64,000 nucleotides of DNA, from NCBI GenBank assembly GCA_026195895.1, contig JAPHRO010000030.1, positions 23,910 to 87,909 on the forward strand, given 5' to 3'. The translations under genes and the position numbers were made by a program. The notes under the pieces were generated by a model. That model worked only from the letters and a program-made list of their open reading frames with translations, had not been told where the DNA came from and made no database searches. This document shows positions 5,152 through 63,592 of this stretch, one piece after another; the first letter of the stretch is position 1; each line of letters begins with the position of its first letter. This DNA is from Gammaproteobacteria bacterium (GTDB lineage: Bacteria; Pseudomonadota; Gammaproteobacteria; SZUA-229).

Positions 5152-5212
5152 CTGATGTTCCAGTGCATAAGCTATACTTGTGTATGCTACTGGATGATAA
5201 AGGTCTATTGAT

Positions 5213-5623
5213 ATGCAAAAATGTCGTGAGTGCCAGCACCGAGTGAGTGAACAGGCTTTTAGCTGCCCACAATGTGGTGCGCCTTATCCAGCCAAAGAAA
5301 AATGGGATGGCTGGGGATTTGAATATAAATCAGCAGCAGCATTCCTGGGTTGGCCTTTGCTACATATATCGTTTAAATTTCGTCCGAATAAGATGCCGGT
5401 GCCAGCAAAGGGTATTATTTCCATTGGCCAGTTTGGCATGGGTGTCATAAATATTTCGCAATTTGGTATAGGCGTGTTTAGTTTAAGCCAGTTTACGATT
5501 GCCGGATTTGCCGTCGCCCAGTTTGGAGTTGCTTATTCGCTGGTGGCGCAATTTGGAATATATGTTGAGCAGGGTTATGGACAGATGGTTGTGCAACTTG
5601 GCGAGCTTTTTTCCGGGGTATAA
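5213..5623 (+). CDS. Zinc-ribbon protein with five tandem QFGxGV hydrophobic repeats
   Basis: 136 aa; N-terminal C-x2-C-x13-C-x2-C (CRECQ…CPQCG); C-terminal half ISIGQFGMGV / INISQFGIGV / FSLSQFTIAG / FAVAQFGVAY / SLVAQFGIYV. Confidence 0.5.
   Translation: MQKCRECQHRVSEQAFSCPQCGAPYPAKEKWDGWGFEYKSAAAFLGWPLLHISFKFRPNKMPVPAKGIISIGQFGMGVINISQFGIGVFSLSQFTIAGFAVAQFGVAYSLVAQFGIYVEQGYGQMVVQLGELFSGV
5414..5590 (+). repeat. Five tandem 33-nt coding repeats (cagtttggNNtNggNgtN…)
   Basis: DNA units cagtttggcatgggtgtc / caatttggtataggcgtg / cagtttacgattgccgga / cagtttggagttgcttat / caatttggaatatatgtt, spaced 33 nt apart inside the 5213..5623 CDS. Confidence 0.5.
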
Positions 5624-5636
5624 AAACTAATATGTT

Positions 5637-6125
5637 TTAATTTGACTGTTGCCTGGTCAGGCTAATAACAACGGTGAAATAGGCAGCTATCACCCCCAGT
5701 ATCAAAGCTGAAACATCCAGCATATCAAAATGGCCATAGATAAAATAATTGGCGATAGCGTGATTAAACCAGTCGGGTAGTATGTCAATAATAGAGTCCG
5801 TCATTGATGGTTGCTGACCAATTTCAAATAGCAACTCTACCACCAGCCAGAAAATACAAATCAGACGCAGAGTTATAATATTTGCAGAAATAACCGCAGT
5901 GCTTAAAAGAATAAAAGCATAAATATGCAGAAAAGAGGGTATTGAGTAAATGATGCTGTTCGAAAAGACCTGCGGCATGAGATTTGTTTCCGGCAGGTAA
6001 TTGAGGAAAAGTGGTTGTTGGTGTAATCGAGTTGTGAGATATAACAACACACCTGTTAATAGCGCCGAAAGTGCTGCTACTAACAGGAGTGTCCTGTTCT
6101 TATTTGTCCATTTATATTGAATCAT
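5637..6125 (-). CDS. Small integral membrane protein, unknown function
   Basis: About 160 aa from MIQYKW…; four hydrophobic helices. The ORF-track start at 6188 overlaps the upstream gene, so the internal Met at 6125 is preferred. Immediately downstream of the PKD-repeat protein on the same strand. Confidence 0.45.
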   Translation of the reverse strand: MIQYKWTNKNRTLLLVAALSALLTGVLLYLTTRLHQQPLFLNYLPETNLMPQVFSNSIIYSIPSFLHIYAFILLSTAVISANIITLRLICIFWLVVELLFEIGQQPSMTDSIIDILPDWFNHAIANYFIYGHFDMLDVSALILGVIAAYFTVVISLTRQQSN

Positions 6126-6151
6126 TTTTCTGGCTGATGATTTGATTTCTA

Positions 6152-39575: not shown

Positions 39576-39950
39576 ATGTCTTTATTTAAAAAGAGTTTGT
39601 TTGTTTTAGTGGCTGGCAGCGTGTTGGTGGGGAATCTGGCTTTGGCCGAGGGCGTGTTTCAGGAAAGAAAACGTGCCGGACATGAGCTGACTGCGGCGGA
39701 GCAAAGACAGTTAACGATAGAGTTTTACGAAAAATTTGGACATCAGAAGTCATCACCGATCAAAAAATCCAATAATCCATGGCAGGCTAAAAAGCAGCGT
39801 AGCATGACGCAATCGCCAGCTATTAGCTGGGGTGAGTGTCGGGATTATGCGCTGCAAAAACGTAATAGCTGTTATAAACAGGGAAAGGATGCTTACAATT
39901 GTGAGCGTTTTTATGAGGCGCGGACACAGAAATGCAATCAGGATTTTTAG
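39576..39950 (+). CDS. Small secreted 4-Cys protein (paralogue of 54217..54597)
   Basis: 124 aa; signal peptide. C-terminal domain NNPWQAKKQ…CRDYALQKRNSCYKQGKDAYNCERFYEARTQKCNQDF aligns with NNPWASKKAKQ…CQQFALKQRNQCYAVGNDGSICELYYKARVGHCAEYF of the second copy. All four Cys are conserved. Confidence 0.6.
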   Translation: MSLFKKSLFVLVAGSVLVGNLALAEGVFQERKRAGHELTAAEQRQLTIEFYEKFGHQKSSPIKKSNNPWQAKKQRSMTQSPAISWGECRDYALQKRNSCYKQGKDAYNCERFYEARTQKCNQDF

Positions 39951-41924: not shown

Positions 41925-43190
41925 TTAATAATTTTCCAGCTTACGCATACTGGCCGGTAGCATTTTGAAATCTACCAGTGAACTGACGAAGGCTTTAACA
42001 AAGGTCGCTTCATCTTCGTGGATTAATTTATAGTACTGGATTTTCATGGTCAGAGCGCTGCCGAATATGATCGAGACCAGTGCCAGCATGGAGCCAACGG
42101 CAAGTGTAGAAACTCCCGTAATCCCCTGGCCAATAGTGCACCCAAGCGCAAGTACACCGCCAATGCCCATCAGGATGCCGCCAATAATATGGGTGGCAAA
42201 GTCCCTGAAACTGGCGAACCATTCAATGCGGAAATTTTTTGAAACCAGTGACCAGAACAGGGCGCCGGTTATAACACCAAATAAAGCCGCCAGGCCAAAG
42301 GTCAGATTCAGGCTGTTAAAGCCATTTAACGCGTAACGCAGAGATTCGCCAATGGGATTAATAAAGGTGTATGACTGAACCGCGATGCCATCCGGTGATT
42401 TGGATTCTTCGAGCATGCTCCAGTTGTCAACATTGGCATAAGATACCCAGCTATAGGTTTCACCATCTACTTCTATGGTTGCCATGCCACCACTGATGTA
42501 CCAGGCACCCAGGACACACAGGCCAATGACGCTGCCTGAAATAATATTGTCTTTGGTGCTGCGGAAATCTGCTGAGCGAAACACGATAATAAGCAGGGCT
42601 ACGCCAATGACCAGTCCCAGGATCAAACGTAGTGAAGCTACCTCAGTAGCCAGGATACCCGCCAGTAAGGAGCCCAGATCCTGTTGTCCTATCAGGCTTA
42701 TAGTGGTTGCATTGGTCCAGCCATAGAACACTTCGGAGTAAATGGTTTTATCTGTGCCTGGAAAAGGGTTGACCATGAAATAGGCGCAAACCGCAATAAC
42801 GGCAAACAGCACGATAGATTTGAGATTGCCGCCACCAATACGGATCAGGGTTTTGTTACCACAGCCGCTGCCCAGTGTCATACCGACGCCAAACATGACG
42901 CCGCCCAGGATGTATTCCAGCCAGGCAAAGCTGCTACCACGATAGGGTGGACGTGAAACATCAACCGAGAGCAGATTCATGGATTCAACGATGGTGACGC
43001 CAATCATGGCCACCGCGATGGCTAAAAACCAGGCGCGAATACGGCCAGAATCACCCATGTTTACCAGGTCTGATACAGCGCCCATGGTGCAGAAGTTTGT
43101 CTTTGTGGCGACAGCTCCCATGATAAAGGCAATGGCAAATGCCAGCCAGATAATAGTTGAATGGGCTGAAGCAAAGCTTTCAAATGACAT
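41925..43190 (-). CDS. YeeE/YedE-family sulfur-compound (thiosulfate-type) transporter
   Basis: Start chosen at MSFESF… (43190). Paired conserved motifs FCTMGAVSD and LGCTIGQGITGVS (one per repeat half) are characteristic of the YeeE/YedE family; ~10 TM helices. Confidence 0.75.
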   Translation of the reverse strand: MSFESFASAHSTIIWLAFAIAFIMGAVATKTNFCTMGAVSDLVNMGDSGRIRAWFLAIAVAMIGVTIVESMNLLSVDVSRPPYRGSSFAWLEYILGGVMFGVGMTLGSGCGNKTLIRIGGGNLKSIVLFAVIAVCAYFMVNPFPGTDKTIYSEVFYGWTNATTISLIGQQDLGSLLAGILATEVASLRLILGLVIGVALLIIVFRSADFRSTKDNIISGSVIGLCVLGAWYISGGMATIEVDGETYSWVSYANVDNWSMLEESKSPDGIAVQSYTFINPIGESLRYALNGFNSLNLTFGLAALFGVITGALFWSLVSKNFRIEWFASFRDFATHIIGGILMGIGGVLALGCTIGQGITGVSTLAVGSMLALVSIIFGSALTMKIQYYKLIHEDEATFVKAFVSSLVDFKMLPASMRKLENY

Positions 43191-43529
43191 CTCAGCGTCC
43201 TCGTCAGTGTTGATTGTGTAACCCGGCAGAAAATCTCTGATCAGGGGGTGATGATTATAAGGTATATGAACAGCATTTAGCATTTGCTAAATATCGCCAT
43301 TATTTCCCTGGTTTTTATAATAGAGACAGCTACGCTAATGAAAACATTTCTGAATGGAAATGCAGGTTATATCTAAATATCCGATCTAAGCGTCGGCTTT
43401 ATTGGTCTGAGGAATAATACCCGCAGATTTCAGAAAAGCAACGAGCATAATAAAACGCTAATATTGAAGTTTGTGTGGCCTGTGTTGATTAAACAGGCAC
43501 CATGCAACAAGGCCGGTGGTCAAAGCCTG

Positions 43530-45236
43530 TTATTTGTACAGTGGTTCCAGTTCGCTTGTGGTTGAGGATTTTCGATCATCTATAGCCGATAGTGTTTGCC
43601 GACTGGCGCGCCATAAATTAGCGCTGTTCCAGTCGGCTGGGCTGTTTGAATAAAGGGCTGCACTAAGATTATTTATTTCTGTTTTTAAAGGCTCACCCGC
43701 TTTGTCTGCCAGTTCGCCCAGGCTAGTCGGCGGCTGGTCAGCAAAGACAGTTTTACCCCATTGCAGGAAGGCATCTTTACAGGCACCGGCATTACCCGAA
43801 TCACAGGCCTGTTTTAAAATTTTATCGATTTGTTGCAGCGAGTCTGTATGCCTGGTCGAGGGTTGTTTTTTCTGTTTTGATTTTTTTTGTGAACTGAAAA
43901 ACCAGAACAGGCCGGTTAGTAACCAGCCCATAGCCAGTGCCAGGCTTAGCCAGATCCAGAATGAAGACGTCGCCTGGCTGCTCGTTCTGGATTCCGGTTC
44001 TGTCAGCGGTATAAGTTCTGGTGCTGGCTGGACGGGTTCAGCAGGTGTCGCCTGCGTGGCCTGAGGTTTGCCGCTGGCGACAACGACCAGATGCTTTGCA
44101 GGTAATTTAGCGATTTCCATTTTATCGGTCTGGCTATTCCACCAGGGGATTTCTATTGCAGGCAAAACAAACTCGCCGGCACGGGCGGGAATCAGGGCGA
44201 TGTTCTGTTCATATTTGCTGGTTATGCCGGTAGACGACTTAACATCGCCGGTGACTGGCTGGTCCGGGTACTGTTTTAATCCGGCAATGGCAGGCATGGT
44301 GATTTCGGGTAACTGTGAAAAACTGACGCCGTCCGCCAGCACGGTGATATTACGTGTAATCGGTTCTCCGACTTTATATTCCGTCTTATTGTCTGGCCAG
44401 TGTTCCAGCAACTGGATGCTATTTGCTACCAGCCAGTGCTGAGCCTTAAACTGTTTGGGGACGGGTAATACTTCCAGATCGATAGCTCTGGATAGCGCGC
44501 GTTTCGTTTGCGCGTTGCTGCGGAATGGATCGTAATAGTTTGAATTGCTACCAATATTTACCCTGGCCGCAGCAAGGCTCGGTTCGATATGCAGCTTTCC
44601 TGATTGTTGCGGGAAAATAGCGAAGCGAATTTCGGCGACCTGATAAGTTATGTTGCCGCGACGCGTGTTAAAAAGTTTTCCTTCATCAAGTTGTTCGACA
44701 ATAATATCAACACCGCTGGTTTTTAATTCATTGAATTGCGGAGTTGAAGCAAAACGACGATTGCTCAGTAATCGGCGGGTAACAATTATCTGGGCGTTTA
44801 CATAGGCCTGGTTGCTGCTGACTTCCAGTTCAGAAATAAAATCACCGGACGCTGTTGCTGCATTTTGATCCAGCGGTTTGATGGTTAACTGAATTTGTGG
44901 ACTCAGGTCTTTACCGAAATGAATTGATGGTATGGTAAAGACGCCGGCTTTTAATGGCATCAATGTCACTGTCCAGGTGGCTGTTTTTTTATAGTTACCA
45001 TTGATGATGCTGATGTTGCTGCTTTTACTTTCGCCGAGATTACTAAAGTTATTTTCCAGTGGTGAAAAATCCGGATCGTCATCAACAGAGCCAGTGGCTT
45101 CAAAAATCAATTGAAAGGTTTCATTGGCGTAAAGCGTGCTTCTGTCTGTTTGCACCGTGATATTCGCCGCCAGGCTGTTGGCGGCGAATACAAAAAACAA
45201 TACAAATATGTAAGTTAATTTATTTAAAACGTGCAT
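43530..45236 (-). CDS. BatD-like protein (Bat/MoxR-vWA operon)
   Basis: 568 aa; signal peptide; large periplasmic region; a single TM near aa 440 (FWIWLSLALAMGWLLTGLFWFF); last gene of the MoxR-vWA operon. Confidence 0.65.
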   Translation of the reverse strand: MHVLNKLTYIFVLFFVFAANSLAANITVQTDRSTLYANETFQLIFEATGSVDDDPDFSPLENNFSNLGESKSSNISIINGNYKKTATWTVTLMPLKAGVFTIPSIHFGKDLSPQIQLTIKPLDQNAATASGDFISELEVSSNQAYVNAQIIVTRRLLSNRRFASTPQFNELKTSGVDIIVEQLDEGKLFNTRRGNITYQVAEIRFAIFPQQSGKLHIEPSLAAARVNIGSNSNYYDPFRSNAQTKRALSRAIDLEVLPVPKQFKAQHWLVANSIQLLEHWPDNKTEYKVGEPITRNITVLADGVSFSQLPEITMPAIAGLKQYPDQPVTGDVKSSTGITSKYEQNIALIPARAGEFVLPAIEIPWWNSQTDKMEIAKLPAKHLVVVASGKPQATQATPAEPVQPAPELIPLTEPESRTSSQATSSFWIWLSLALAMGWLLTGLFWFFSSQKKSKQKKQPSTRHTDSLQQIDKILKQACDSGNAGACKDAFLQWGKTVFADQPPTSLGELADKAGEPLKTEINNLSAALYSNSPADWNSANLWRASRQTLSAIDDRKSSTTSELEPLYK

Positions 45237-45242
45237 TGCGAT

Positions 45243-46991
45243 TTACCAGGGTTGGTTGGCATCAGACTGGTGGCCCTGTCTATTATATTGATAAAGAAAT
45301 TTATTTCGTAGCAAGCCGCCAGGATCATTGGGGATTTTTTTGAGCCACTGTTGTTGTTCCTGTTTGCTCAGGTCCTGTTGCGATGATTCTGTGCTTGCTT
45401 GCTGTTCTTCTTCAGGCTGCGTTTTCTGTTGTTGTTCTTCAGTCTGGTTTTGCTGTTGCTGCGAAGATTCATTTTCAGCTTGCTGTTCTTCTGTTGACTG
45501 ATTTTCTGCCGACTGTTGATCTTTTTTTTGCTGCTGCTGGGATGAATCCTGTTGCTCGGATTTATCCTGCGACTGCTGTTCAGAGTTTTTCTGATCTTTG
45601 CTCTGTTCGTTGTTTTGCTGATTGTTTTGCTGTTTTTCCTGTTGCTGTTTTTCCAGCAGCTCTCTGTTGAATTTTGCGTCTTCATGGTTGTTATCAAGTT
45701 GCAGCGCCTGGTTATACGCATCAATGGCTTCGCCTGCTCGGCCCATCCTGGCCAGCGCATTGCCGCGATTGTAATGAGCGTCTGCAGTGTCTATGTCCGT
45801 TAACTGTTCGATGCTTTGTTCAAACTCACCGGCTTTATAAAAAGCACTGGCTTTCCATTCTGGCTGCTTGAATAGTTCGGCGGCTTCGGCGTTATTGCCA
45901 GCGGCAAATTGCTCACTGGCACGTTGATTATCGTTGCGCCACAGTTCATCCCAGCTCAACGCATCGGCAGGTTGTGGGAAGGGTATCAATAAAATAAAAG
46001 CCAGTGATAAATAACCTTTGCGAAAAGCAAACGCGGCCAGCGGCATTAGCAATAATAATAGCCAGGGCCCCTGTTCGCGCCAGACGTCGGTTTTCATTTC
46101 TGTTTCGGTTGAATCTTTTTTAGTGTGGCTGGCTACCAGTAAACCGAGGATGTGTTTGATATCTTTATCGGAAGCCGTGAGACGACTAAATCGCCCGTCG
46201 CCACTGCTGGCGATAGCTTTCAGTTTGGCTGCATCAAGTTTAGGAATAACGATCGCGCCACTGGCATTTTTTACAAAGCCACCGTTGCCTGAGGGAATAG
46301 GTGCACCATCCGGCGTGCCAATAGCGAGGATTGATAAACGATGCCCCTGGCTGGTGAGTTCATCAATAGTTGAGTCGGCGTCGTCTACATCGTCGGTAAT
46401 TAACAGTATATCGCCTTTACTGATGCCGGCATTTTTCAGTAATTCGCTGGCCCTGTTTAAAGCCTTGCTGATATTGCTACCCTGGGCGGGCATCAGCTCG
46501 GTGCTTAAACTGGGTACCAGTGAATTAATGGTAGCGGCGTCATCGGTTAACGGGCTTATGGTAAAGGCTTCGCCGGCATAGCCAATCAGTGCCGTCTGGC
46601 CTTCTTTTCTGAATTTTAAAATATCGGAAATTTTGTGCCGCGCGCGTGCTAATCGACTGGGTTTAATATCCGTGGCATCCATTGATAATGATAAGTCCAG
46701 AGCAATCACCAGCGCCGACTGTTTTTTGAAGACTGGTTGCGGGCGTTTTTCCCAGGCCGGCCCGGCAAGAGCAATAACAGCGAGTATACCGCCGATAAAA
46801 AATAACATAACCGGCAGTCGGCTATTTTTTCCGGGTTTGCCAATGAGCAGATGGGGAAGCAGGGCAGGATCGATGACTGATTGCCAGCTTCGGCTGAACA
46901 GTTTTTTGCGGAGCAGCAGCCAGGTCAACAATAGTAAAGGCAGCAGTGCCAGTAGCCAGCTCGGACGAATGAAATGAAACTGTTCAATCAT
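45243..46991 (-). CDS. Fused vWA-domain + TPR protein (BatB/BatC-like) with ~100-aa Q/E-rich low-complexity tail
   Basis: 582 aa; N-terminal TM helices; vWA MIDAS (DLSLSM); TPR region (…YNRGNALARMGRAGEAIDAYNQALQLD…); QQNNQQNNEQSKDQKNSEQQSQ… low complexity. Confidence 0.7.
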   Translation of the reverse strand: MIEQFHFIRPSWLLALLPLLLLTWLLLRKKLFSRSWQSVIDPALLPHLLIGKPGKNSRLPVMLFFIGGILAVIALAGPAWEKRPQPVFKKQSALVIALDLSLSMDATDIKPSRLARARHKISDILKFRKEGQTALIGYAGEAFTISPLTDDAATINSLVPSLSTELMPAQGSNISKALNRASELLKNAGISKGDILLITDDVDDADSTIDELTSQGHRLSILAIGTPDGAPIPSGNGGFVKNASGAIVIPKLDAAKLKAIASSGDGRFSRLTASDKDIKHILGLLVASHTKKDSTETEMKTDVWREQGPWLLLLLMPLAAFAFRKGYLSLAFILLIPFPQPADALSWDELWRNDNQRASEQFAAGNNAEAAELFKQPEWKASAFYKAGEFEQSIEQLTDIDTADAHYNRGNALARMGRAGEAIDAYNQALQLDNNHEDAKFNRELLEKQQQEKQQNNQQNNEQSKDQKNSEQQSQDKSEQQDSSQQQQKKDQQSAENQSTEEQQAENESSQQQQNQTEEQQQKTQPEEEQQASTESSQQDLSKQEQQQWLKKIPNDPGGLLRNKFLYQYNRQGHQSDANQPW

Positions 46992-47974
46992 CGACTCAGT
47001 CCTGTTGCTTTGAGTACACTAATGAAAAATACAATGACCAGAGCAAAGCCCAGTGGCCAGAAATATAACGCCATAATCGGACGAAAGCTCTGGCTTTCCT
47101 GCTCAACCGGTTCCAGTTCATCAAGCAGGCTGTAAATTTTATTCAATTCTTCTGTATCTCGCGCACGGAAATATTTACCGCCGGTTTGTTCAGCAATGGC
47201 GGTTAATGTTTTTTCGTCGATTTCCCGGTTTTTTACCTGACGATTAAAAAAGAAGCCGCCCCGTTCAACCATCTCCGCACCGATGCCAATGGTATAAATT
47301 TTCAGTCCCTGTTCGGCCGCAATTTCTGCCGCTTTAATCGGTTCAACTTCACCAGCCGTGTTTCTGCCATCGGTGAGTAATATCAATACCCGGCTGTTCA
47401 CTTCGAGATTCTGCAATCTTTTTATACCCAGACCAATGGCGTCACCGATAGCCGTGGCTTTGCCCGCGATGCCGATGAGTGATTCCTGCAATAAAGTATT
47501 CACCGTGGTGATATCGAATGTTAAGGGTGTCTGTAAATAAGCGCGTTCACCAAACAGGATGAGTCCCAGGCGATCGCCTTCACGGCGCTTGATAAATTCA
47601 CCGGCCACCAGTTTTACTGCCTGCAAACGATTGATGGTTTGATTGCCGATGGCAAAATCTTCTTCGGCCATACTGCCAGATAAATCAACCGCCAACATTA
47701 AATCACGGCCGGAGACAGGAATATCGAGCCGATCGCCTAACCATTGTGGTCGACTTGCCGCCAGTACCAGCAATATCCACGCGATGCTGGCCAGCATCAA
47801 TAGCCAGCGATTCAGCTTGCGGGTTTTATCCAGGCTGGTGTCGGCGGCAAAATCCTCAATAAAAGGCACGCGCAGGGCAGCATCCTGTACAGTATTGGCC
47901 GCGGGTAGAATAAAGCGCAGTATCAGGGGCAGCGGTAAACAGAGTAATGCCCAGGGCCAGTCGAACTGAATCAT
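46988..47974 (-). CDS. vWA-domain protein BatA-like
   Basis: 328 aa; N-terminal TM helices; MIDAS DLSGSM; overlaps neighbours by 4 nt (ATGA). Confidence 0.8.
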   Translation of the reverse strand: MIQFDWPWALLCLPLPLILRFILPAANTVQDAALRVPFIEDFAADTSLDKTRKLNRWLLMLASIAWILLVLAASRPQWLGDRLDIPVSGRDLMLAVDLSGSMAEEDFAIGNQTINRLQAVKLVAGEFIKRREGDRLGLILFGERAYLQTPLTFDITTVNTLLQESLIGIAGKATAIGDAIGLGIKRLQNLEVNSRVLILLTDGRNTAGEVEPIKAAEIAAEQGLKIYTIGIGAEMVERGGFFFNRQVKNREIDEKTLTAIAEQTGGKYFRARDTEELNKIYSLLDELEPVEQESQSFRPIMALYFWPLGFALVIVFFISVLKATGLSR

Positions 47975-48483
47975 GTCGATGCCCCCTGAGCGTTTTTGGG
48001 TAAGGCGGCGATCCAGTTGTTACAGCTAGCCAACAATTGCTGTGTGTCGATATGAATTTGTTTCTGGTAGGGCGCAGTTAATAAAATATCGCCCAGTTGT
48101 TCAGAGAAATAATCTGCTTCGGTCAGCGAATTTAATTGTGCTATCCAGTGACTGCCGATAGTGCTGGCGCTTTGTTCCCGCGGCAGATAGCTGATACAAA
48201 CTCGACGCAGCAATACGGAGAGTTGCTGCACAAGTAACAGTTCATTTTTATGTTGCACAAAAGCTTGCTGAATCTGGTTGAATTCATTGAGGGCTGTTTT
48301 TTTCAGCGGTTTCTGTTTGAGTTTGCGCAGTAACCCGGGCACTAAAATAATCAGCGCAATAATCAGCACTGCCAGCAACCACCAGCCGGGTGCGGGTGGC
48401 CACCAGCTCACCGGGTCGGGTAAATGGATGTCGCGTAGCGGTAGTTCGCTCAGCTTGCCGGGATTCATTTGCGCGGGATTCAT
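47971..48483 (-). CDS. DUF4381-like membrane protein
   Basis: 170 aa; LPDPVSWWPPAPGWWLL motif and a single TM, as in DUF4381 members of MoxR operons. Confidence 0.55.
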   Translation of the reverse strand: MNPAQMNPGKLSELPLRDIHLPDPVSWWPPAPGWWLLAVLIIALIILVPGLLRKLKQKPLKKTALNEFNQIQQAFVQHKNELLLVQQLSVLLRRVCISYLPREQSASTIGSHWIAQLNSLTEADYFSEQLGDILLTAPYQKQIHIDTQQLLASCNNWIAALPKNAQGAST

Positions 48484-49418
48484 TTTTTCAGTCCAAGCCC
48501 CGCCTGCAAGCTGGCAACTAAATTATCATCGGTAGCAAGACTCAAATAAAACATATTCAGTTTGTGACAGGTGTCGCGCAAATATTGCTGGTGCTGAACA
48601 AAGCGTTGTTGATAGTTCTCGCGAACACTGGCTCGACGCGTATTCAATCCCATTTCGTTGCTACCGTCGGAGACGCGATAAAATCCCGCCGGTGGTAATT
48701 CAGTTTCCAGCGGATCGTGAATGGACAATAGCACCACGTCATTGTGTCGAGCCATCATGGATAAATGTGAATAGGCAGCTTCATCCAGATGGCGAAAGTC
48801 AGAAATTAAAAAAATCAAACTGCCGGGTCGTGCCACACGTCGCAATCGATTCATCGCCTGTGCGCCGCTGCTTTCATTGGGCGAGCTGTGTTTAAAGTCC
48901 TGCCATGCCGCATGTTCAGCCAGTTTTTTAATAAAGTGCAGGGTGCCGGCCTTGCCCCGTTGTGGTCGCAATTCTTCGTGGCTGTGTTCCGAGAAAATCA
49001 GGCCGCCCAGTCGGTCTCCGTGTTGGGCGGCACTCCAGGCCAGCAGTGCCGCCGCTTTGGCCGCGACCACGGACTTGAACGAATTCCGGGTACCAAAAAA
49101 CATTGGTTGTCGGTAATCCACCCACAGCAACACCGGTCGCTCGCGTTCTTCACGAAACAGTTTGGTATGGGGTTTGCCGGTGCGAGCAGTCACGCGCCAG
49201 TCCATGGAGCGAATATCGTCACCGGGCTGATAGGGGCGCACTTCATCGAATTCCATGCCACGACCCTTGAAGGCAGATAAATAATTACCGCTGAACTGGG
49301 CGCCAATTTTGCCTGATTTCAACGGTAATTTGCGCGCTTCCCGATTCAGCCCAATGAGAGTGGACTGGCGAATACGGACGATATCGTCGGCTTCAGTTTG
49401 TTGTTTAACAGCAGACAT
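48480..49418 (-). CDS. DUF58-family protein
   Basis: 312 aa; canonical position after MoxR; …F.G.G.EF…R.Y..GD..R.IDW… pattern. Confidence 0.8.
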   Translation of the reverse strand: MSAVKQQTEADDIVRIRQSTLIGLNREARKLPLKSGKIGAQFSGNYLSAFKGRGMEFDEVRPYQPGDDIRSMDWRVTARTGKPHTKLFREERERPVLLWVDYRQPMFFGTRNSFKSVVAAKAAALLAWSAAQHGDRLGGLIFSEHSHEELRPQRGKAGTLHFIKKLAEHAAWQDFKHSSPNESSGAQAMNRLRRVARPGSLIFLISDFRHLDEAAYSHLSMMARHNDVVLLSIHDPLETELPPAGFYRVSDGSNEMGLNTRRASVRENYQQRFVQHQQYLRDTCHKLNMFYLSLATDDNLVASLQAGLGLKK

Positions 49419-50369
49419 TTATGGCACAGCAACTCGTGCAATCAGTTCATCAATAAATTTATCGGTGGTGATGCCTTCAGCCTCGGCTTCAAAGCTGAGA
49501 ATAATACGGTGGCGCATCACATCATGGGCCATGGTCTGGATATCTTCCGGGGTGACAAAGTCTCGCCCAGCCAGCCAGGCGTGGGCGCGGGCACAGCGAT
49601 CCAGTGCCATGCTGGCGCGTGGGCTGGCGCCATATTGCAGCCACTCGGCCAGGTCTGCACCATAGGCGCCCGGATTGCGGCTGCTGAGTACCAGGTGTAA
49701 TAAATAGTCTTCCAGGTTCTCCGCCATGTGGATATCCAGCACTTCCTTGCGCGCCGCAAACAGATCGGCCTGGGAAATCTGGGTCGCCGGTTTTGCCGGT
49801 TCACGTAAATCTTCGCGGGCTTCCTTGCGCGTTAGATGGAGAATTTCTTTTTCGGATGCCGCATCCGGGTAATCAATGAACACGTGCATCAGAAAACGAT
49901 CCAGCTGGGCTTCCGGCAAAGGATAGGTGCCCTCCTGCTCGATCGGATTTTGTGTGGCCATGACCAGGAACAGGTCGGGCAATTTATACGTAACTGAGCC
50001 CACTGTGATCTGCCGTTCTGCCATGGCTTCCAGCAGTGCCGATTGCACCTTGGCCGGGGCGCGGTTAATTTCATCCGACAGGATCAGGTTATGAAACAGC
50101 GGGCCCTGCTGGAATTTGAATGAGCCGTCCTGTGGGCGATAAATTTCAGTACCGGTTAAATCAGCGGGCAGCAAATCCGGGGTGAACTGGACGCGATGAA
50201 AATCACCTTCGATACCTTCGCTGAGTACTTTGATCGCGCGTGTCTTCGCCAGGCCCGGCGCCCCTTCCACCAGTAAATGGCCGTCTGCCAGCAGGGCGAT
50301 GAGCAAACGATCCACCAGTATTGACTGGCCTATAATCTGCTGGCTGACATAGTCTCGAAGTTGTTGCAT
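49419..50369 (-). CDS. MoxR-family AAA+ ATPase
   Basis: Walker A GAPGLAKT, Walker B LILSDEINRA; start chosen at MQQLRD… (the ORF-track start at 50567 adds ~66 unlikely residues). Confidence 0.9.
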   Translation of the reverse strand: MQQLRDYVSQQIIGQSILVDRLLIALLADGHLLVEGAPGLAKTRAIKVLSEGIEGDFHRVQFTPDLLPADLTGTEIYRPQDGSFKFQQGPLFHNLILSDEINRAPAKVQSALLEAMAERQITVGSVTYKLPDLFLVMATQNPIEQEGTYPLPEAQLDRFLMHVFIDYPDAASEKEILHLTRKEAREDLREPAKPATQISQADLFAARKEVLDIHMAENLEDYLLHLVLSSRNPGAYGADLAEWLQYGASPRASMALDRCARAHAWLAGRDFVTPEDIQTMAHDVMRHRIILSFEAEAEGITTDKFIDELIARVAVP

Positions 50370-50621
50370 GGCCTGTTGATGTGACAAAGTTATTCCCCCC
50401 TGATGTACCTGAAAATGCCCGAGTATTCTAATGATTCCACCGGCAGGCGCCAAGCGTGTATCATTGCGTTTTACAGACAGTGAAAAAATCAGATAGTTTA
50501 AACCTGAAAAATCGCAGTTGACCCTGGGTGCATAAAACCAAGATATGATCAGAAAAGTATTTTTCAATATTATTGTATTTAGCCATTGGATGAGTGTCCT
50601 GTGCAGCGGATTGCGTATTAA

Positions 50622-54216: not shown

Positions 54217-54597
54217 ATGCACTTTACCAAAATATTAAGCACTGCGATTTCTACTATCCTGTTAATTTCTGTTATGTCGGGCGCTAATGCAGCGGGTACC
54301 GCGCAAAAACGCGTATTGAGCGATCAGGAAAAGCAAAGAATTGCCGCTGAGTTCAATCAGCATTTTCGTGCTACGGACTCAGGTTCGTACCAGAAATTGA
54401 ACAATAATCCCTGGGCGAGCAAAAAAGCGAAACAGAAAAGACATGCTGAAAAAATGCTCAGGTTGAGCGGCTCAATGGATAGCTGTCAGCAATTTGCGTT
54501 GAAGCAGCGTAACCAGTGTTATGCCGTAGGGAATGATGGTTCTATCTGCGAGTTGTACTACAAAGCCCGCGTCGGTCATTGCGCTGAGTATTTTTGA
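54217..54597 (+). CDS. Small secreted 4-Cys protein (paralogue of 39576..39950)
   Basis: 126 aa; signal peptide; shares NNPW.(A/S)KK…C..ALKQRN.CY..G.D…CE.(F/Y)Y.AR…C…F with the 39576 copy. Confidence 0.6.
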   Translation: MHFTKILSTAISTILLISVMSGANAAGTAQKRVLSDQEKQRIAAEFNQHFRATDSGSYQKLNNNPWASKKAKQKRHAEKMLRLSGSMDSCQQFALKQRNQCYAVGNDGSICELYYKARVGHCAEYF

Positions 54598-54606
54598 TTC
54601 AGCAGC

Positions 54607-54645
54607 AAAAAAACCGACATCAGTGCGGCGCTCGCCGCGCCTGAT
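54607..54645 (-). terminator. Candidate rho-independent terminator for the cytochrome c4 gene
   Basis: Imperfect GC-rich hairpin (atcagtgcggcg-ct-cgccgcgcctgat) followed on the minus strand by a 7-U run (aaaaaaa at 54607-54613 on the + strand). Confidence 0.4.
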
Positions 54646-54672
54646 CAATACCAGCAGTTTCTCTACTGGCTA

Positions 54673-55308
54673 TTAAAGCCGCGACAGGTAGTCAGCAACG
54701 GCATCCAGATCAGTATCCGACAGGGCCTTTACCTGCTCAACCATCGCCGGGTTGCTGTTTTTCCGGAAACCATCGCGAATCCATTTTAACTGGCGCAACA
54801 GGTAGGCATGATGCTGTCCTTTTAAGCGTGGGAAATATGCGTCATTGTTCCCCTGGGCATTGTCACCATGGCATTGCATGCAACGCTGGCGATAGATTGT
54901 TTTACCCAGTTCCAGTTGCTGGCTATTACCCATACCAGGAGTAGGGTCCTGATCCATGGAAGCGATGTATGCTGTAACATCGGCTATAGCCTGTACCCCG
55001 CCGATGGATTCAGGATCGGTGAATGGATACATGGTGGGGTTTACCCGGTTCATGGCGCGAATATCGGCCAACTGTTTTATCAGGACCTTGCGGTGCTGTC
55101 CGGCAATGACGGGAAAGCTGCCATCTTTTTTGCCCCAGCCATTTTTCATATGACAGGCGGCACATAAAGGATAGATTTTTTTGCCGTTTTCGATATTGGG
55201 TGTAAGCTCCAGTGACTGGTGAATTTCATCAGGAGTTGATAAGGCACAAAGCGGTACCAGGCCGGTTAGTATTAAAATAAAGCCCGTTAGTAAATGTCGT
55301 CTATTCAT
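54673..55308 (-). CDS. Dihaem cytochrome c4-like protein
   Basis: 211 aa; signal peptide; two CxxCH haem sites (CAACH, CMQCH), each followed by a Met-containing distal region. Confidence 0.85.
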   Translation of the reverse strand: MNRRHLLTGFILILTGLVPLCALSTPDEIHQSLELTPNIENGKKIYPLCAACHMKNGWGKKDGSFPVIAGQHRKVLIKQLADIRAMNRVNPTMYPFTDPESIGGVQAIADVTAYIASMDQDPTPGMGNSQQLELGKTIYRQRCMQCHGDNAQGNNDAYFPRLKGQHHAYLLRQLKWIRDGFRKNSNPAMVEQVKALSDTDLDAVADYLSRL

Positions 55309-55363
55309 GCGCGTAGCATAGCATTGCTGGACGGTGTTTTTTTATAAACCAGATCAATTTATT

Positions 55364-56119
55364 ATGAATTTAAAAACAGTTTTAATTTGCCTGGCTATTT
55401 TTGCACTTGGTTCCCCGGTACAGGCAAAAGAAGTTAGAACCATAGAGACCGACGATGTTGATCTTGATGTGCGTATATTCCCTGCCAAAGGTAATGTTTT
55501 GCTGCTCGGCTTCCCCTGTGATGAAGGCAGAAGTATTGCGGAAGAAAAAACTGCGGCGGCATTGGCCGAAGATGGGGTGGAAGTCTGGATGCCGGATATG
55601 CTGTCGGCCTTCATGTTGCCCAAGGTGCGCAGTAGTCTGGCCAATATTTCGACAGATGCGCTGCTGGCCCTGATTGATGAAGCAACCAGTACCGGTAAAC
55701 GGGTTTACCTGATTGCCAGTGGCCCCGACACCGAGCTGGTCTTACGCGGTGCCAGTCAATGGGAACAGGGCCATAAAAATACTGCTCTGGCAGGCGCGAT
55801 ACTCATGTTCCCTCGTTTGTTCAAAGCAGAACCTGAGCCGGGGAAAATACCGGAATATGTCGATGCGGTAGGTAAAACCCGATTGCCTATCATGTTACTG
55901 GAAGGTGAGCGCACGCCCAATCGCTGGGGCATCAATACCCTGAGTGAAGAATTACAAAAAAGCGGCAGCACGGTGAAAGCGGAAGTGATCCCGATGGTGC
56001 GCGGTTATTTTTTTAAACGACAGGATGCTAACTGGTCAGAAGACGTGGTGACCTCGCAAATGGCGGGACTGATCAAAGTAAGTTTATTTTATCTTGAGGA
56101 AAAAGAAATCAATGATTAA
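55364..56119 (+). CDS. Secreted alpha/beta-fold-like protein, stand-alone copy of the N-domain of 57207..58487
   Basis: Start at MNLKTV… (signal peptide). …AGVEVWMPDMLSAFMLPKVRSS… and …TGKRVYLIASGPDTELVLRGASQW… parallel …AGVEVWMVDLAESLYLPRGPST… and …TGKTIALIGRSYSAIPVLRGVRDW… in the fused gene. No canonical GxSxG nucleophile motif. Confidence 0.55.
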   Translation: MNLKTVLICLAIFALGSPVQAKEVRTIETDDVDLDVRIFPAKGNVLLLGFPCDEGRSIAEEKTAAALAEDGVEVWMPDMLSAFMLPKVRSSLANISTDALLALIDEATSTGKRVYLIASGPDTELVLRGASQWEQGHKNTALAGAILMFPRLFKAEPEPGKIPEYVDAVGKTRLPIMLLEGERTPNRWGINTLSEELQKSGSTVKAEVIPMVRGYFFKRQDANWSEDVVTSQMAGLIKVSLFYLEEKEIND

Positions 56120-56615
56120 ACGTTTATTCGTTTTCGCTATGCTAGTTAGTGTGACTGGGTTATTGCAGGCAAGCAATCTGAAACCTTACACGGCCAAAGG
56201 CCCGACGCCCCCGTTAGTATTGCAGGATTTGCAGGGCAATCTCCATGACCTGAAAGATTATAAAGGCCAGGTGGTGCTGGTTCAGTTCTGGGCGACTTAT
56301 TGTACGCCCTGCCGGAAGGAAATGCCGTCAATGAACAAGATGATGAAAAAAATGGGCAATGTACCATTTAAAATTCTTGCCGTTGATATGGGCGAAACCA
56401 GAGCGGAAGTGACGCAGTTTGTTAATGAAGTAAAACCCGAGTTTACTATCCTGATGGATGAGTCAGGTAAAAGCATTGCTGACTGGCGTGTATTTGCCGC
56501 GCCTTCAAATTTTATTCTCGATCCCGAAGGTAATATTCGTTATACCCTGTTTGGTGGTGTGGAATGGGATTCCGATGAGCTGGTGGATAAATTAAAAGCC
56601 CTGGCGACCAGGTGA
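56094..56615 (+). CDS. TlpA/DsbE-family periplasmic thiol:disulfide oxidoreductase
   Basis: 173 aa; signal peptide; WATYCTPC active site; thioredoxin fold with cis-Pro region. Overlaps the 3' end of the preceding gene (likely start at MIKRLF, 56112). Confidence 0.8.
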   Translation: MRKKKSMIKRLFVFAMLVSVTGLLQASNLKPYTAKGPTPPLVLQDLQGNLHDLKDYKGQVVLVQFWATYCTPCRKEMPSMNKMMKKMGNVPFKILAVDMGETRAEVTQFVNEVKPEFTILMDESGKSIADWRVFAAPSNFILDPEGNIRYTLFGGVEWDSDELVDKLKALATR

Positions 56616-56690
56616 TTTTTGCAAAACAGATTGAAGTTAAGCTGATCGGTTTTTAATGTGGAAGTTTTATCTCGTTGTTGAGAGAAGTGA

Positions 56691-57134
56691 ATGGCTGTTT
56701 TAGACGATTCAATACTTGCTTTGATTGCGCGATTTGTTGTTGATGATATTGATCATCTCAGTATATCGGATGAGAAGTTTTTACAGCAGCAGGTCGCCGA
56801 AATAAAAAACCAGATTGGTGATGTGCCGGATGATCAGCGCCAGCGATTAGTGCTGGCCTGGATTCAGGAACATGCCGAGCGCTATCGTGAAGAATGGAAA
56901 AGAAAATCTTTTTCTGAACTGCCGTTGAGTCAGCGCTGTTCTGATTGCCCCATTATTCACAATAGCCATATATCCCATTGCATGATCCACAAAAAATGGA
57001 CCCGTTTGTTGCACGATTATATTAATGGTAATCTTGATTCCGAAAAATATATCAACGAGACTCTGCATCTGCTGGACGCACATAAAAACAAATTAAAAAT
57101 ATCTCAGATTTCCAACCAGTTAAATTCAAAATAA
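56691..57134 (+). CDS. Hypothetical cytoplasmic protein with C-x2-C…H…H-C cluster
   Basis: 147 aa; QRCSDCPIIHNSHISHCMIHKKW; sits between the two TlpA-type modules. Confidence 0.4.
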   Translation: MAVLDDSILALIARFVVDDIDHLSISDEKFLQQQVAEIKNQIGDVPDDQRQRLVLAWIQEHAERYREEWKRKSFSELPLSQRCSDCPIIHNSHISHCMIHKKWTRLLHDYINGNLDSEKYINETLHLLDAHKNKLKISQISNQLNSK

Positions 57135-57206
57135 ACCGGTTTTATTCCTTGCGAAGGATTTGCTCCACTAAACCATTTTGAACATGATGTGGAGGCTTAG
57201 GTTACA

Positions 57207-58487
57207 TTGACTACTATGCGTTTTTTACTGTTACTGATGAGTTTCTGGCTGGCTGCGGCTCAGGCTGCGACCCAGGAATCTGCAGATGAATTATCGATAG
57301 CGGTTGATGATCAGGAATTAAATGTAACTCGGTTTGGCGCCACAGGTGCTCGGCTGGTAATCTGGATTATGCCCGGCTTCGGCGAGCCGGATCGAATGAT
57401 TACCAGCGCACAGCAACTGGCGCAGGCCGGGGTCGAAGTCTGGATGGTCGATCTGGCAGAAAGTTTATACCTGCCCAGAGGGCCATCAACCATGCGTAGT
57501 ATTGATGGTCGCTATGTTGCTGCGTTGATCGAAGCCGCCCACAAACAAACGGGCAAAACCATTGCGTTGATCGGCCGCAGTTATTCCGCTATTCCTGTGC
57601 TACGTGGTGTGCGTGACTGGCAGCAGAGTCAGCAACGGGCGGGAGCAACTAAGGCCTATGTATCAGGTGTGCTGCTGTTTTCGCCTGAATTGTACGCAAC
57701 CATACCGGCGCTGGGCCTGGATCCGATATTTGAACCCATTGCTCAGGCGACCAATGTTCCGATCATGTTATTCCAGGCAGGTAAACGCGGTAATCGCTGG
57801 CAACTGGATAATTTATTATCCCGCTTGCGTTCAGGTGGTGCCCAGGTGTTTGTGAAAATCATGCCTGGTGTGACCGGATTGTATTATCACGAAGACAGTG
57901 CGCCGGAAACACTGGCCATGCTGCAGCAGATGCCTAATCAGATAATTAACAGTCTGCGCCTGCTGGAAAATATACCCACGCCGCTGGTTGCTTTGCCCTT
58001 GCCGAAGCAGGCCAAAGCAAAAGGCCGCGGGCTGGATAATGCATTAAAACCTTTCCAGGGTAATCCAGAGCCGCCGCCGATTGCGTTAATCAATGCCCAG
58101 GGTAAAAAGCTAATCCGTAAAGATTATCGCGGCAAGGTTACGGTGATGAATTTCTGGGCTAGCTGGTGTCGGCCCTGTGTTGAGGAAATCCCTTCGTTAA
58201 ATAATTTGCGTAAAGCAATGGCCGGTCGGCCGTTCGAATTAATTTCGGTAAACTATGCAGAAGATACCGAACAAATCACCGACTTTCTAAAAATGGTAAA
58301 AGTTGAATTTCCTGTACTACTGGATACCGATGGCTCCGAATCAGCAAAATGGAATGTACTGGTATTTCCTTCTACCTTTGTCATTGGTCCCGATGGGCGT
58401 ATAGTTTACGGATTAAACGGCGCGATTCACTGGGATAGTCCCGAAATCGTCACACAATTAAAAGCGTTGTTGCCGAAATCAAAATAA
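57207..58487 (+). CDS. Fusion protein: secreted alpha/beta-fold-like domain + TlpA/DsbE thioredoxin domain
   Basis: 426 aa; signal peptide; N-domain paralogous to 55364..56119; C-domain NFWASWCRPCVEEIPSLN…SVNY…FPVLLD…FPSTFVIGPDGRI… (classical CcmG/DsbE-like WCxxC). Confidence 0.7.
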   Translation: MTTMRFLLLLMSFWLAAAQAATQESADELSIAVDDQELNVTRFGATGARLVIWIMPGFGEPDRMITSAQQLAQAGVEVWMVDLAESLYLPRGPSTMRSIDGRYVAALIEAAHKQTGKTIALIGRSYSAIPVLRGVRDWQQSQQRAGATKAYVSGVLLFSPELYATIPALGLDPIFEPIAQATNVPIMLFQAGKRGNRWQLDNLLSRLRSGGAQVFVKIMPGVTGLYYHEDSAPETLAMLQQMPNQIINSLRLLENIPTPLVALPLPKQAKAKGRGLDNALKPFQGNPEPPPIALINAQGKKLIRKDYRGKVTVMNFWASWCRPCVEEIPSLNNLRKAMAGRPFELISVNYAEDTEQITDFLKMVKVEFPVLLDTDGSESAKWNVLVFPSTFVIGPDGRIVYGLNGAIHWDSPEIVTQLKALLPKSK

Positions 58488-62107: not shown

Positions 62108-63592
62108 TTATTTTGTGCTGTTTTTTGCCGCTTTCAGCTTGGCTACCTGTTGTTCATAGGCACGGCTAAACTCATCACCAAACAGGGTATGAAAATCATC
62201 TTCGACACTGGCAATGATTGCTTTGTAATGGGTGTTGAAGGCTTCCCAGTATTTCGCTTTTTTGCCACCTAGTGAAAAATCTTCGAGTGAAAAACTTTTT
62301 CCTTTTTCCCGCTGTTCGAAGTCCTGTTCCAGTATGATGGGATCGAACCGTTTCAAAACGGTGTGTAGCGCAGTTTGCATGCCGGCCATGACTGCAATCA
62401 TATGGGCTTCCAGGTCGTTAAAGCCTTCATCAACGGCCTGGATAGCAGGCATATAGCTTGATGATCCTGTAGAGAACATGTGATTAAGGGCATCCATTCC
62501 TGTAGGAGAAAACTTGATTGGATTGTTTTCCCGAGCCTGGATGGTTGTTAAGGACATGCGGAATTCGCTTTTAATACTGGCGCGCGCGCGCAGTACCGCG
62601 ACCAGTCCTTCTACTGATGCGCGTACCAGTTGTCCGGCCTGAAGGGCCAGGGCCGCTTCTTCTTCTGGTGTTAGAGAAAGATGTTCCAGCCCCATGCCCT
62701 TAAGCAAATTTTCCATTGCCCTGGTATTGCTACTCGTCAGTACTGATGCGGGTGTAGTTGATCGTGCCGACGGTGCGGGTCTGGCTGATGCCTTGTCGGG
62801 CGTTTCTACCTCTGCTGGTGGTGGAGTTTGACTGGGTGCACCGTACTGCCAGTTATTCGGGATAATAGGGCTGGCGCCATTCTCCGGCGGAGATTGTGGG
62901 GCCGGCGGGCTGACAGGCGGGGGCTCGAACTGTTGCTGCAATGGTGAGGCGTTATCGCCGCCGGTACTCGACAGAATATGTTGGTCATCCCCCGGTGTCG
63001 GTGTATCGAAAGGCGATGATGGGTTTAATTCACCAAGACCAAGATCATCGATGCTGCCAGGATCACTGGTTTTTTTTGGGGTGGTGGAATGGGCTGAGCC
63101 ATTCAACACCGCAAGTGGATCAAGCAGTTTTTCTCCGCCTACGTGAAAGGATGATGTTTCATTCAGGTGGCCAAGATCATCTGTTGATACGGGGTCGTCT
63201 GGCAAAGTTGAGCTGCCGTTGGGATTGCCTGCATGTTCAAATGGGGAGCTATCTGGATTGCCTAATGGCAGTGATGCGTCTGCCTGGATAGTAACAGAGA
63301 TATCGTAGGGTCCTATCCGTATACTATCGCCATGGCTAAGTTTAATTTGGTTGCCTTTACCTAATGCTTCAGTTGCATCATTAATAAATACACCATTGGT
63401 ACTGAGATCAGTCAGGAAATAGTCGCCATTGCTACTACTAATCTGGGCGTGTTTGCCTGAGGCGAGTCGCTCTGGGTCGACAAGTACCCAGGTATTTTCA
63501 GATGAACGACCAATCGTTCCTTCTGTATGAAAGGCTGCGCTAATCTCCTGACCTGGGTTAGGTTTATTTAAGATCGTTAGTATTAAGCTCAT
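62108..63592 (-). CDS. tagH: Type VI secretion system-associated FHA-domain protein TagH
   Basis: 494 aa; N-terminal FHA (…IGRSSENTWVLVD…ISSSNGDYFLTDLSTNGVFIN…); long Pro-rich linker; conserved TagH-type C-terminal domain (…LGGKKAKYWEAFNTHYKAI…FGDEFSRAYEQQ…). Confidence 0.65.
   Translation of the reverse strand: MSLILTILNKPNPGQEISAAFHTEGTIGRSSENTWVLVDPERLASGKHAQISSSNGDYFLTDLSTNGVFINDATEALGKGNQIKLSHGDSIRIGPYDISVTIQADASLPLGNPDSSPFEHAGNPNGSSTLPDDPVSTDDLGHLNETSSFHVGGEKLLDPLAVLNGSAHSTTPKKTSDPGSIDDLGLGELNPSSPFDTPTPGDDQHILSSTGGDNASPLQQQFEPPPVSPPAPQSPPENGASPIIPNNWQYGAPSQTPPPAEVETPDKASARPAPSARSTTPASVLTSSNTRAMENLLKGMGLEHLSLTPEEEAALALQAGQLVRASVEGLVAVLRARASIKSEFRMSLTTIQARENNPIKFSPTGMDALNHMFSTGSSSYMPAIQAVDEGFNDLEAHMIAVMAGMQTALHTVLKRFDPIILEQDFEQREKGKSFSLEDFSLGGKKAKYWEAFNTHYKAIIASVEDDFHTLFGDEFSRAYEQQVAKLKAAKNSTK

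Follow-up and report, generated by a model that had tools for sequence, protein, structure and literature searches.

The region from 54217 to 58487 of the gammaproteobacterial DNA analyzed here (64,000 nucleotides of contig JAPHRO010000030.1, assembly GCA_026195895.1, referred to below as the window) encodes, in two versions, a periplasmic module that ties an alpha/beta-hydrolase-fold (ABH) domain to a thioredoxin of the TlpA/ResA type, and the analysis establishes it as a real, conserved and unstudied module. As the initial annotation of this DNA had claimed, the same two domains are encoded once by a split gene pair and once as a single fused polypeptide (Table 1), though two of the start positions had to be corrected. 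The split TlpA gene most likely begins at ATG 56112 and not at TTG 56094, and the fused gene probably at the ATG at 57216 and not at 57207; together with 55364 for the split ABH gene, these starts are favored because identical database proteins exist (P0391, P0121 and P0001, respectively). The start of the split TlpA gene thereby overlaps the stop of the upstream ABH gene by 8 nt (ATGATTAA). By inspection, the N-termini of all three module proteins read as signal peptides (MNLKTVLICLAIFALGSPVQA, MIKRLFVFAMLVSVTGLLQA and MRFLLLLMSFWLAAAQA), which would place the proteins outside the cytoplasm. No description of the ABH/TlpA combination was found in the literature.

Both halves of the module are shared between the two versions. 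The N-terminal ABH domains (N-domains) are 31% identical over 227 aa (E 4e-27), in line with the paralogy already proposed for them, and the C-terminal thioredoxin parts are 42% identical over 142 aa (E 1e-42). The latter indeed carry TlpA-type active sites, WATYCTPC in the split protein (C64-T-P-C67, 56301-56312) and WASWCRPC in the fused one (C321-R-P-C324, 58167-58178, accompanied by Glu327 and cis-Pro388), and both exceed the Pfam thresholds of AhpC-TSA/Redoxin/Thioredoxin_8 (for the split TlpA, AhpC-TSA 1.2e-22 and Redoxin 2.6e-17). They have the thioredoxin fold with the insertion specific to the TlpA/ResA/CcmG family, and across 211 fused and 49 split sequences W317, C321, P323, C324, E327 and P388 are invariant, giving a WC-x-P-C active site, a glutamate three residues past the second cysteine that is equivalent to ResA Glu80, and an invariant cis-proline. 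With these features (CxPC, ResA-type Glu, cis-Pro), both thioredoxin parts retain what typifies extracytoplasmic reductases of low potential. Their nearest relatives are ResA, TlpA, StoA and 3kcm, and a homology search with the split TlpA returned close orthologues only. The thioredoxin parts thus belong to the TlpA/ResA/CcmG (DsbE)/StoA superfamily, yet they stay below every curated equivalog cut-off: the split and fused parts scored 104 and 84 bits against ResA (NF002854, cut-off 170), 79 and 73 against TlpA (NF047696, cut-off 230), 64 and 60 against DsbE/CcmG (TIGR00385, cut-off 123) and 62 and 69 against StoA (NF041202, cut-off 210), and both were also under the NCBIfam cut-off of the DsbE/CcmG model NF011941. 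None of the characterized members of these families has an ABH domain, whereas the present module is always tied to one.

The ABH fold of the N-domain was recognized because structure prediction revealed it; sequence searches had found nothing. Single-sequence and profile searches against Pfam, NCBIfam and PDB sequences gave no match, which agrees with the earlier statement that the combination is not a named system: the two window N-domains produced only noise against Pfam and NCBIfam at E <= 0.1, a Pfam scan of 32 family members hit Abhydrolase_6 in 3 (best E 0.0055), and the PDB profile search returned nothing under E 0.04. The AlphaFold2 model of the fused protein (426 aa, built from an alignment of 113 fused homologues) reached a mean predicted local distance difference test score (pLDDT) of 94.6 and a predicted template modeling score (pTM) of 0.91, and that of the stand-alone ABH protein a pLDDT of 82.7; the N-domain adopts the canonical eight-stranded alpha/beta/alpha fold of the alpha/beta-hydrolase superfamily. 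Catalytic positions were then placed from the secondary structure and strand order of the model, rather than by superposition. At the nucleophile elbow (column 125, after strand beta5) the 211 fused sequences have Ser in 43%, Gly in 28%, Ala in 11% and Asp in 9%, and all 49 split sequences have Gly. Neither set has any conserved histidine column, and after strand beta8 (residues 218-235) histidine reaches at most 6% in the fused and at most 10% in the split sequences at any position. The loop after beta7 lacks a clear acid, position 190 being Gln in the fused and Glu in the split type; instead, it carries a semi-conserved Asn-Arg-Trp (fused/split, N196 62/91%, R197 68/97% and W198 83/97%). What the whole family conserves is mostly glycine, proline and tryptophan, together with E77 and D82. 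Since nucleophile and histidine are lost and no clear acid is seen, the domain, as modeled, is best described as a pseudo-hydrolase devoid of the Ser/His/Asp machinery. Its closest known counterparts are minimal dienelactone-hydrolase-like ABHs (e.g. PDB 2o2g) and non-catalytic ABH proteins; it differs in an identity of only 14%, in the lack of a Pfam match, of the nucleophile and of the histidine, in its periplasmic location and in being bound to a thioredoxin.

The association of the two domains extends well beyond the window. The family is small: when 1.84 billion representative proteins were searched with a profile covering both types of N-domain, only 415 relatives were recovered at E <= 1e-3, with a bimodal length distribution (among the best 150, 67 are of at most 345 aa and 81 of 380-480 aa). 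A scan of the Genome Taxonomy Database (GTDB), one genome per species, then yielded 80 loci, on which we called open reading frames (ORFs) and applied our own hidden Markov models (HMMs). A fusion is present in 27 loci, and a stand-alone N-domain was scored in 57, some of these being contig-end fragments. Downstream of the N-domain gene, 49 of the stand-alone loci have a TlpA gene at a distance of -26 to +19 nt, the stop and start codons overlapping in most cases. Every N-domain gene with an available downstream flank is thereby fused or coupled to TlpA (the 27 fusions, the 49 pairs and the locus L090). The identities of the N-domain and of the TlpA part are also correlated across loci (r = 0.94; 0.92 among fused and 0.82 among split loci), which agrees with co-divergence of the two domains, with a contribution from shared species phylogeny. 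The initial annotation had suggested that the ABH domain is the dedicated substrate or partner of the thioredoxin. The fusions, the coupled pairs, the correlated identities and the model's pTM bear out the partner; the substrate fares differently, as the cysteine pattern described below makes clear.

The carriers are almost entirely sulfur-oxidizing lineages of the Gamma- and Betaproteobacteria: Sedimenticola, Thiohalophilus, Sulfuriflexus, Thioalkalivibrio, Solemya symbionts, Thiotrichaceae, Cocleimonas, Ca. Thioglobus, Achromatium, Sulfurivirga, Chromatiales and Granulosicoccaceae among the former, and Sulfuricella and Sulfurimicrobium among the latter. One protein of 705 aa (P0310), read by eye only, combines the ABH pseudo-hydrolase and TlpA domains with a C-terminal Sel1-like repeat region, a triple fusion that suggests a role as protein-protein adaptor in at least one lineage. 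Extra domains were also sought in the long fused ORFs of L020, L035, L037 and L052, and these were set aside as apparent over-extended ORF calls in GC-rich genomes, with an internal signal peptide seen by eye.

The fused and split versions fall into two old subfamilies. Their N-domains are 22-39% identical to each other, compared with 33-98% within the split and 24-76% within the fused type, and whereas the split type makes up one cluster, the fused type falls into several. The description of the two copies as tandemly duplicated goes too far: no other of the more than 80 loci has both copy types within +/-6 kb. In the Solemya velum symbiont a single scaffold carries both copies (L024, L071), separated by ~800 kb, and in the Spart_110 metagenome-assembled genome they lie on separate scaffolds (L034, L086). 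Because of this deep divergence and the unlinked positions in other genomes, a recent tandem duplication is ruled out: the window copies represent, by their sequences, ancient and widely distributed subfamilies, and their placement side by side is exceptional. The two forms share a motif, LKPF at the end of the fused linker and its counterpart LKPY at the mature N-terminus of the split TlpA. In the fused protein, ~26 linker residues separate the last ABH helix from LKPF, and the split TlpA signal peptide preceding LKPY is about as long; these lengths are compatible with a fusion by read-through of an overlapping gene pair.

The subfamilies also differ in their cysteines. Each of the 49 split N-domains has a single cysteine, whose alignment column is the same in all of them, whereas 201 of the 211 fused N-domains have none. 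As the fused domain is free of cysteines in these 201 sequences, it is ruled out as a disulfide substrate of its own TlpA domain. In the window the invariant cysteine is Cys52 (codon 55517-55519), within the motif (A/P)-C-D-E-G and three residues past strand beta3, where in active hydrolases the following loop forms the oxyanion hole. The split family further conserves basic residues near the former active site (R161, R193, R197, R223, K228 and R229, in fused numbering). This pattern suggests that the split ABH protein supplies its own thiol. In more distant stand-alone members the column of the invariant cysteine is often Ser. Column 56 alternates between Cys, Ser and Pro among the subfamilies, and a third architecture consists of a stand-alone ABH with Ser at the column of the invariant cysteine (motif P-S-E-H-G), with ~30 representatives, roughly 20 of them full-length. 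Two loci hold this serine type: in L090 (1528-2843) a TlpA gene comes directly after, and overlaps, that of a distant stand-alone ABH protein (P0295), with no cytochrome c4 gene upstream, and in L089 the contig holds only the signal peptide of the downstream gene.

In the fused model, the pTM of 0.91 and an ordered linker (pLDDT 81-96; L280 invariant, and D277, P259 and P289 at least 90% conserved) imply a confidently predicted relative placement of the two domains. The interface was assessed with a home-made mean-field direct coupling analysis (DCA) on sequences aligned with hmmalign (effective sequence number, Meff, 184-225). The strongest intradomain couplings join adjacent strands of the model (e.g. 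52-119, 40-51 and 394-400), and the analysis therefore works to some degree. For the inter-domain couplings, two sets of positions were fixed beforehand, namely the 'top-face' loops after beta3-beta8 of the ABH domain, and the CxxC helix with the cis-Pro loop of the thioredoxin. Among the top 100 inter-domain couplings, 20 joined the two sets when the 211 fused sequences were used, versus 6.4 expected (p = 4e-6), and 18 did so when split pairs were added (p = 5.5e-5); examples are 199-385, 129-387, 235-390, 195-328 and 223-331. This covariation is suggestive of a CxxC face apposed to the former hydrolase pocket, and we regard it as supportive rather than conclusive.

When neighboring ORFs were clustered, a single recurrent partner emerged: a dihaem cytochrome, encoded divergently and directly upstream of the split ABH gene. 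The window member had been called a cytochrome c4, and with its two CXXCH motifs, a Pfam Cytochrom_C match (1.7e-18) and PDB cytochromes c4 as its best hits (E 2.8e-19 to 2.6e-16) it is by sequence a normal c4. Its orthologues (38-98% identity) stand divergently upstream in 42 other loci, all of the split type, which, with the window included, makes 43 of the 57 split-scored loci. Across 41 orthologues the CXXCH motifs of the two class-I domains, an NPTM motif and the second Met-ligand motif are conserved, and the conserved cysteines are the four that bind haem and no others. Split loci devoid of c4 are mainly betaproteobacterial (L022, L025, L027, L029 and L076), and only 2 of the 27 fused genes (L002, L035) have any dihaem cytochrome within 3 kb, in both cases within 1.1 kb. 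The conserved unit is thus c4 | ABH, TlpA, with c4 tied to the split module only. In the intergenic region between c4 and ABH, the window has a motif, GCGCGTAGCATAGCA...CCAGATCAA, that is common to L061, L072, L080 and L088. An FNR/CRP-type box (TTGAT-N4-ATCAA, at most one mismatch) occurs in 11 of 41 such regions, compared with 0.7 expected from shuffles, and is perfect in L038, L063, L064, L065 and L068 (Thiotrichaceae, Cocleimonas and Methylophaga relatives); the window retains the ATCAA half-site only, 7 nt ahead of the ABH start codon. This distribution hints at oxygen-responsive co-regulation of the c4 and ABH genes in some lineages.

We propose that the module is a periplasmic thiol-disulfide reductase with an obligate ABH pseudo-hydrolase partner and a composite active site, a reading whose chances we put at about even. 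According to this proposal, a TlpA/ResA-type CxxC reductase would act only jointly with its dedicated ABH domain, the CxxC face of the thioredoxin packing on the former substrate-binding face of the ABH domain, with the ABH pocket providing substrate recognition and the CxxC the chemistry. Because the fused ABH domain has no cysteine, the CxxC of the fused form would have to act on something else, presumably a ligand or client that sits in the Cys-free pocket or close to it. In the split form, made from translationally coupled genes, the invariant ABH cysteine would be a redox-active thiol that TlpA keeps reduced or resolves, and the pair would be co-regulated with the dedicated dihaem cytochrome c4, which it probably serves. 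Reducing power would come from a membrane transporter of the DsbD/CcdA type, as in other TlpA-like proteins. Of all this, the data show the paralogy, the folds, the triad loss, the pairing, the cysteine pattern, the c4 linkage and the taxonomic range; the electron source, the direction of flow, the composite site and the client are inferred.

Several points weigh against this proposal. A DsbD or CcdA gene does not recur in the module neighborhoods, and if the CxxC face were permanently buried on the ABH domain, it would be hard to see how a DsbD-type donor gains access to it. The orientation of the CxxC is derived from the pTM and from low-depth covariation, which phylogenetic structure can inflate, and the correlation between N-domain and TlpA identities is to some extent expected from shared species phylogeny alone. 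The redox-active role given to the split cysteine is read from its invariance, and the loop in which it lies has a model pLDDT of 66 (residues 51-60). A purely reductive scheme, moreover, leaves the role of c4 unexplained, and neither the fused modules nor the betaproteobacterial split modules have an adjacent c4.

The linkage to c4 invites a different explanation, which we consider unlikely: the split TlpA could be a CcmG/ResA-like thioreductase acting on the CXXCH pairs of c4 before haem insertion, with the ABH protein as holdase or adaptor, and the fused paralogue could serve another c-type cytochrome likewise. That c4 is the sole recurrent neighbor, divergent from 43 split loci across short shared intergenic regions, would fit such a role, as would the four haem-binding cysteines being the only ones in the c4 family, the resemblance of the TlpA parts to ResA, CycY and DsbE, and the proximity, at most 1.1 kb, of a dihaem cytochrome to the fused genes of L002 and L035. 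However, an adjacent cytochrome is absent from 25 of the 27 fused loci and from the betaproteobacterial split loci, the DsbE/CcmG scores fall far short of the TIGR00385 cut-off, and the module genes lie outside ccm/ccs operons. Housekeeping Ccm systems normally mature every c-type cytochrome, and a maturation role would also leave the single invariant cysteine and the Arg-rich loops of the split ABH protein unexplained.

Electrons might instead flow in the opposite direction, with the pocket cysteine of the ABH protein and the CxxC forming a cofactor-less site that oxidizes reduced sulfur or a thiol and passes the electrons via c4 to the respiratory chain. We hold this to be a long shot. It would account for the near-restriction of the module to sulfur oxidizers, Sedimenticola, Thioalkalivibrio, the Solemya symbionts and Sulfuricella included, for the tight c4 linkage, for the basic residues flanking the invariant cysteine, and for the lack of a DsbD-like donor gene nearby. 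Yet there is no flavin, metal or Cys-ligated haem through which thiol oxidation, a two-electron step, could be matched to haems that take one electron each, c4 retains both Met-ligand motifs, the TlpA part retains the CxPC and ResA-type Glu of low-potential reductases, and the fused subfamily has neither the cysteine nor c4; the taxonomic skew, for its part, could be phylogenetic rather than functional. An equally doubtful, more specific version is that the pair is a hitherto unrecognized, cofactor-less periplasmic enzyme of sulfur oxidizers in which the hydrolase-derived pocket (with the invariant cysteine in the c4-linked form) and the CxxC jointly process a reduced-sulfur or thiol compound, for instance a persulfide, polysulfide or thiosulfonate adduct, its split form being wired to the respiratory chain via c4; if true, such an enzyme would be a new route linking thiol/disulfide chemistry and haem-based electron transport. 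Least probable of all is that the two proteins are independent neighbors, an ABH enzyme active via non-canonical residues and a general TlpA reductase brought together by operon drift and chance duplication, for although the ABH superfamily tolerates unusual catalytic residues and the alternation at column 56 could mark a relocated nucleophile, this is at odds with the fusion or coupling of TlpA wherever a downstream flank is available, the overlapping stop and start codons, the confident inter-domain packing and covariation, and the conservation of neither histidine nor nucleophile.

The proposed reductase-partner arrangement has parallels in known systems. In Neisseria PilB (Trx-MsrA-MsrB) and in pneumococcal Etrx1/2 with MsrAB2, a TlpA-like reductase and the protein that it serves form one polypeptide or are encoded side by side (PMC3914529). 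As in PilB and Etrx/MsrAB, the reductase-partner pair described here is fused in some genomes and split in others; unlike the PilB/MsrAB clients, enzymes whose catalytic cysteines the thioredoxin recycles, the fused partner here has no cysteine, no recognizable catalytic residues and another fold, and the analogy may hold for the split subfamily only, with its one invariant cysteine (49/49). Another comparison is with DsbG and DsbC, which, as Depuydt et al. 2009 are said to have described, protect single-cysteine periplasmic proteins. Like the clients of DsbG, the split ABH protein has a lone invariant cysteine and, beside it, a dedicated CxxC partner, which would fit a reductase that rescues or recycles a thiol; DsbG, however, is a general, dimeric protein that lacks genetic coupling to its many clients, whereas the split pair is one-to-one and translationally coupled. 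SoxS and SoxW, which function with SoxV, are periplasmic thioredoxins of sulfur-oxidizing bacteria that act alongside c-type cytochromes; the module differs from them in having an ABH partner and no recurrent sox genes nearby, and the likeness is by analogy only.

TlpA-like reductases can be regarded as the specificity modules of the oxidizing cell envelope. Those characterized each serve a defined client, be it apocytochromes, Sco/CoxB, Msr or spore cortex enzymes. In the present clade, specificity appears to come from a dedicated hydrolase-fold domain that is catalytically dead, because the pair is found fused or split (a Rosetta-stone pattern) in dozens of genomes. Its carriers include animal symbionts and SUP05-type lineages, and in one branch the module is firmly linked to a cytochrome c4 of its own. 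Finding the client would extend periplasmic redox biology by a new branch, and might reveal a missing step in the envelope metabolism of sulfur oxidizers or in microaerobic respiration. The module proteins are publicly annotated as 'TlpA family protein disulfide reductase' or 'hypothetical protein' only, and the N-domain merits a family model of its own.

Table 1. Features of the region 54217-58487, in window coordinates
Feature	Position	Strand	Remarks
Secreted 4-Cys protein	54217-54597	+	126 aa; four C-terminal Cys; no family match
Dihaem c4-type cytochrome	54673-55308	-	211 aa; signal peptide; CAACH and CMQCH
Divergent c4/ABH intergenic region	55309-55363	.	55 bp; presumably a shared control region
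Split-type ABH-fold pseudo-hydrolase (best description)	55364-56119	+	251 aa; signal peptide ...PVQA/KE; identical to P0001
Split-type TlpA/ResA-like periplasmic thioredoxin	56112-56615	+	167 aa; signal peptide; identical to P0391
Cys/His-cluster protein	56691-57134	+	147 aa; between split and fused modules
Fused ABH-TlpA protein	57216-58487 (ORF 57207-58487)	+	423 aa; identical to P0121
Fused protein, part 1: signal peptide and ABH domain	57216-57968	+	residues ~4-254 of ORF 57207-58487; zero Cys
Fused protein, part 2: ordered Pro-rich linker	57969-58073	+	residues ~255-289; TPTP...GLD..LKPF
Fused protein, part 3: TlpA/ResA-like thioredoxin domain	58074-58487	+	residues 290-426

The region holds six genes, and the fused gene is followed downstream by HspQ and then by an ABC-class ATPase. 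A weak, short GC hairpin with a T-run (56600-56612) coincides with the split TlpA stop codon and is a possible weak terminator dividing the split operon from the genes of the 147-aa protein and the fused protein; save for this hairpin, a scan for promoters and terminators gave nothing over shuffle expectation.

The initial annotation had treated the whole region as a thiol-redox island, which holds for c4 beside the split module and for no other neighbor. The 147-aa protein exists as described, with a cluster C-x2-C...H-x-S-H-C-x2-H and no signal peptide, and it has no Pfam or NCBIfam match and no tblastn homologue in any of the fetched loci. The small 4-Cys secreted proteins are likewise genuine paralogues, that at 54217-54597 (126 aa) being 32% identical to that at 39576-39950 on the plus strand (124 aa), with a common C-terminal four-Cys pattern and no family match for either; by tblastn against all loci the pair was found only in L001, the window organism's own contig, and at none of the modules of other genomes. 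The HspQ, ABC-ATPase and cobalamin genes, searched in the same manner, were beside the module in no other genome. A conserved island spanning 54.2-58.5 kb was therefore rejected, as neighbors other than c4 were not found beside the module elsewhere, and the region juxtaposes the three-gene unit (c4 | ABH, TlpA) with a fused paralogue that is independent of it and with genes unrelated to either. No ccm, res, sco, ccs or sox context recurs around the module loci. In L002 (Sedimenticola selenatireducens; 4568-5362 and 5588-6901), genes for a NapC/NirT-type tetrahaem cytochrome, a dihaem cytochrome unrelated to the window c4 by tblastn, a VF530-domain protein and another protein with a faint Abhydrolase_1 match lie upstream of the fused gene.

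Elsewhere in the window, a 452-aa protein of the Sulf_transp family (YeeE/YedE-like sulfur-compound transporter, E 7e-56) is encoded on the minus strand at 41925-43283, 2 kb from the second 4-Cys paralogue. At 43530-50567, on the same strand, lies a BatA-D/MoxR-like operon comprising an AAA_3 MoxR ATPase, DUF58 and DUF4381 proteins, two VWA proteins (one with TPR) and BatD. Close to the window end, the minus strand at 62108-63592 encodes a type VI secretion FHA-domain protein (T6SS_FHA_C, 1e-56).

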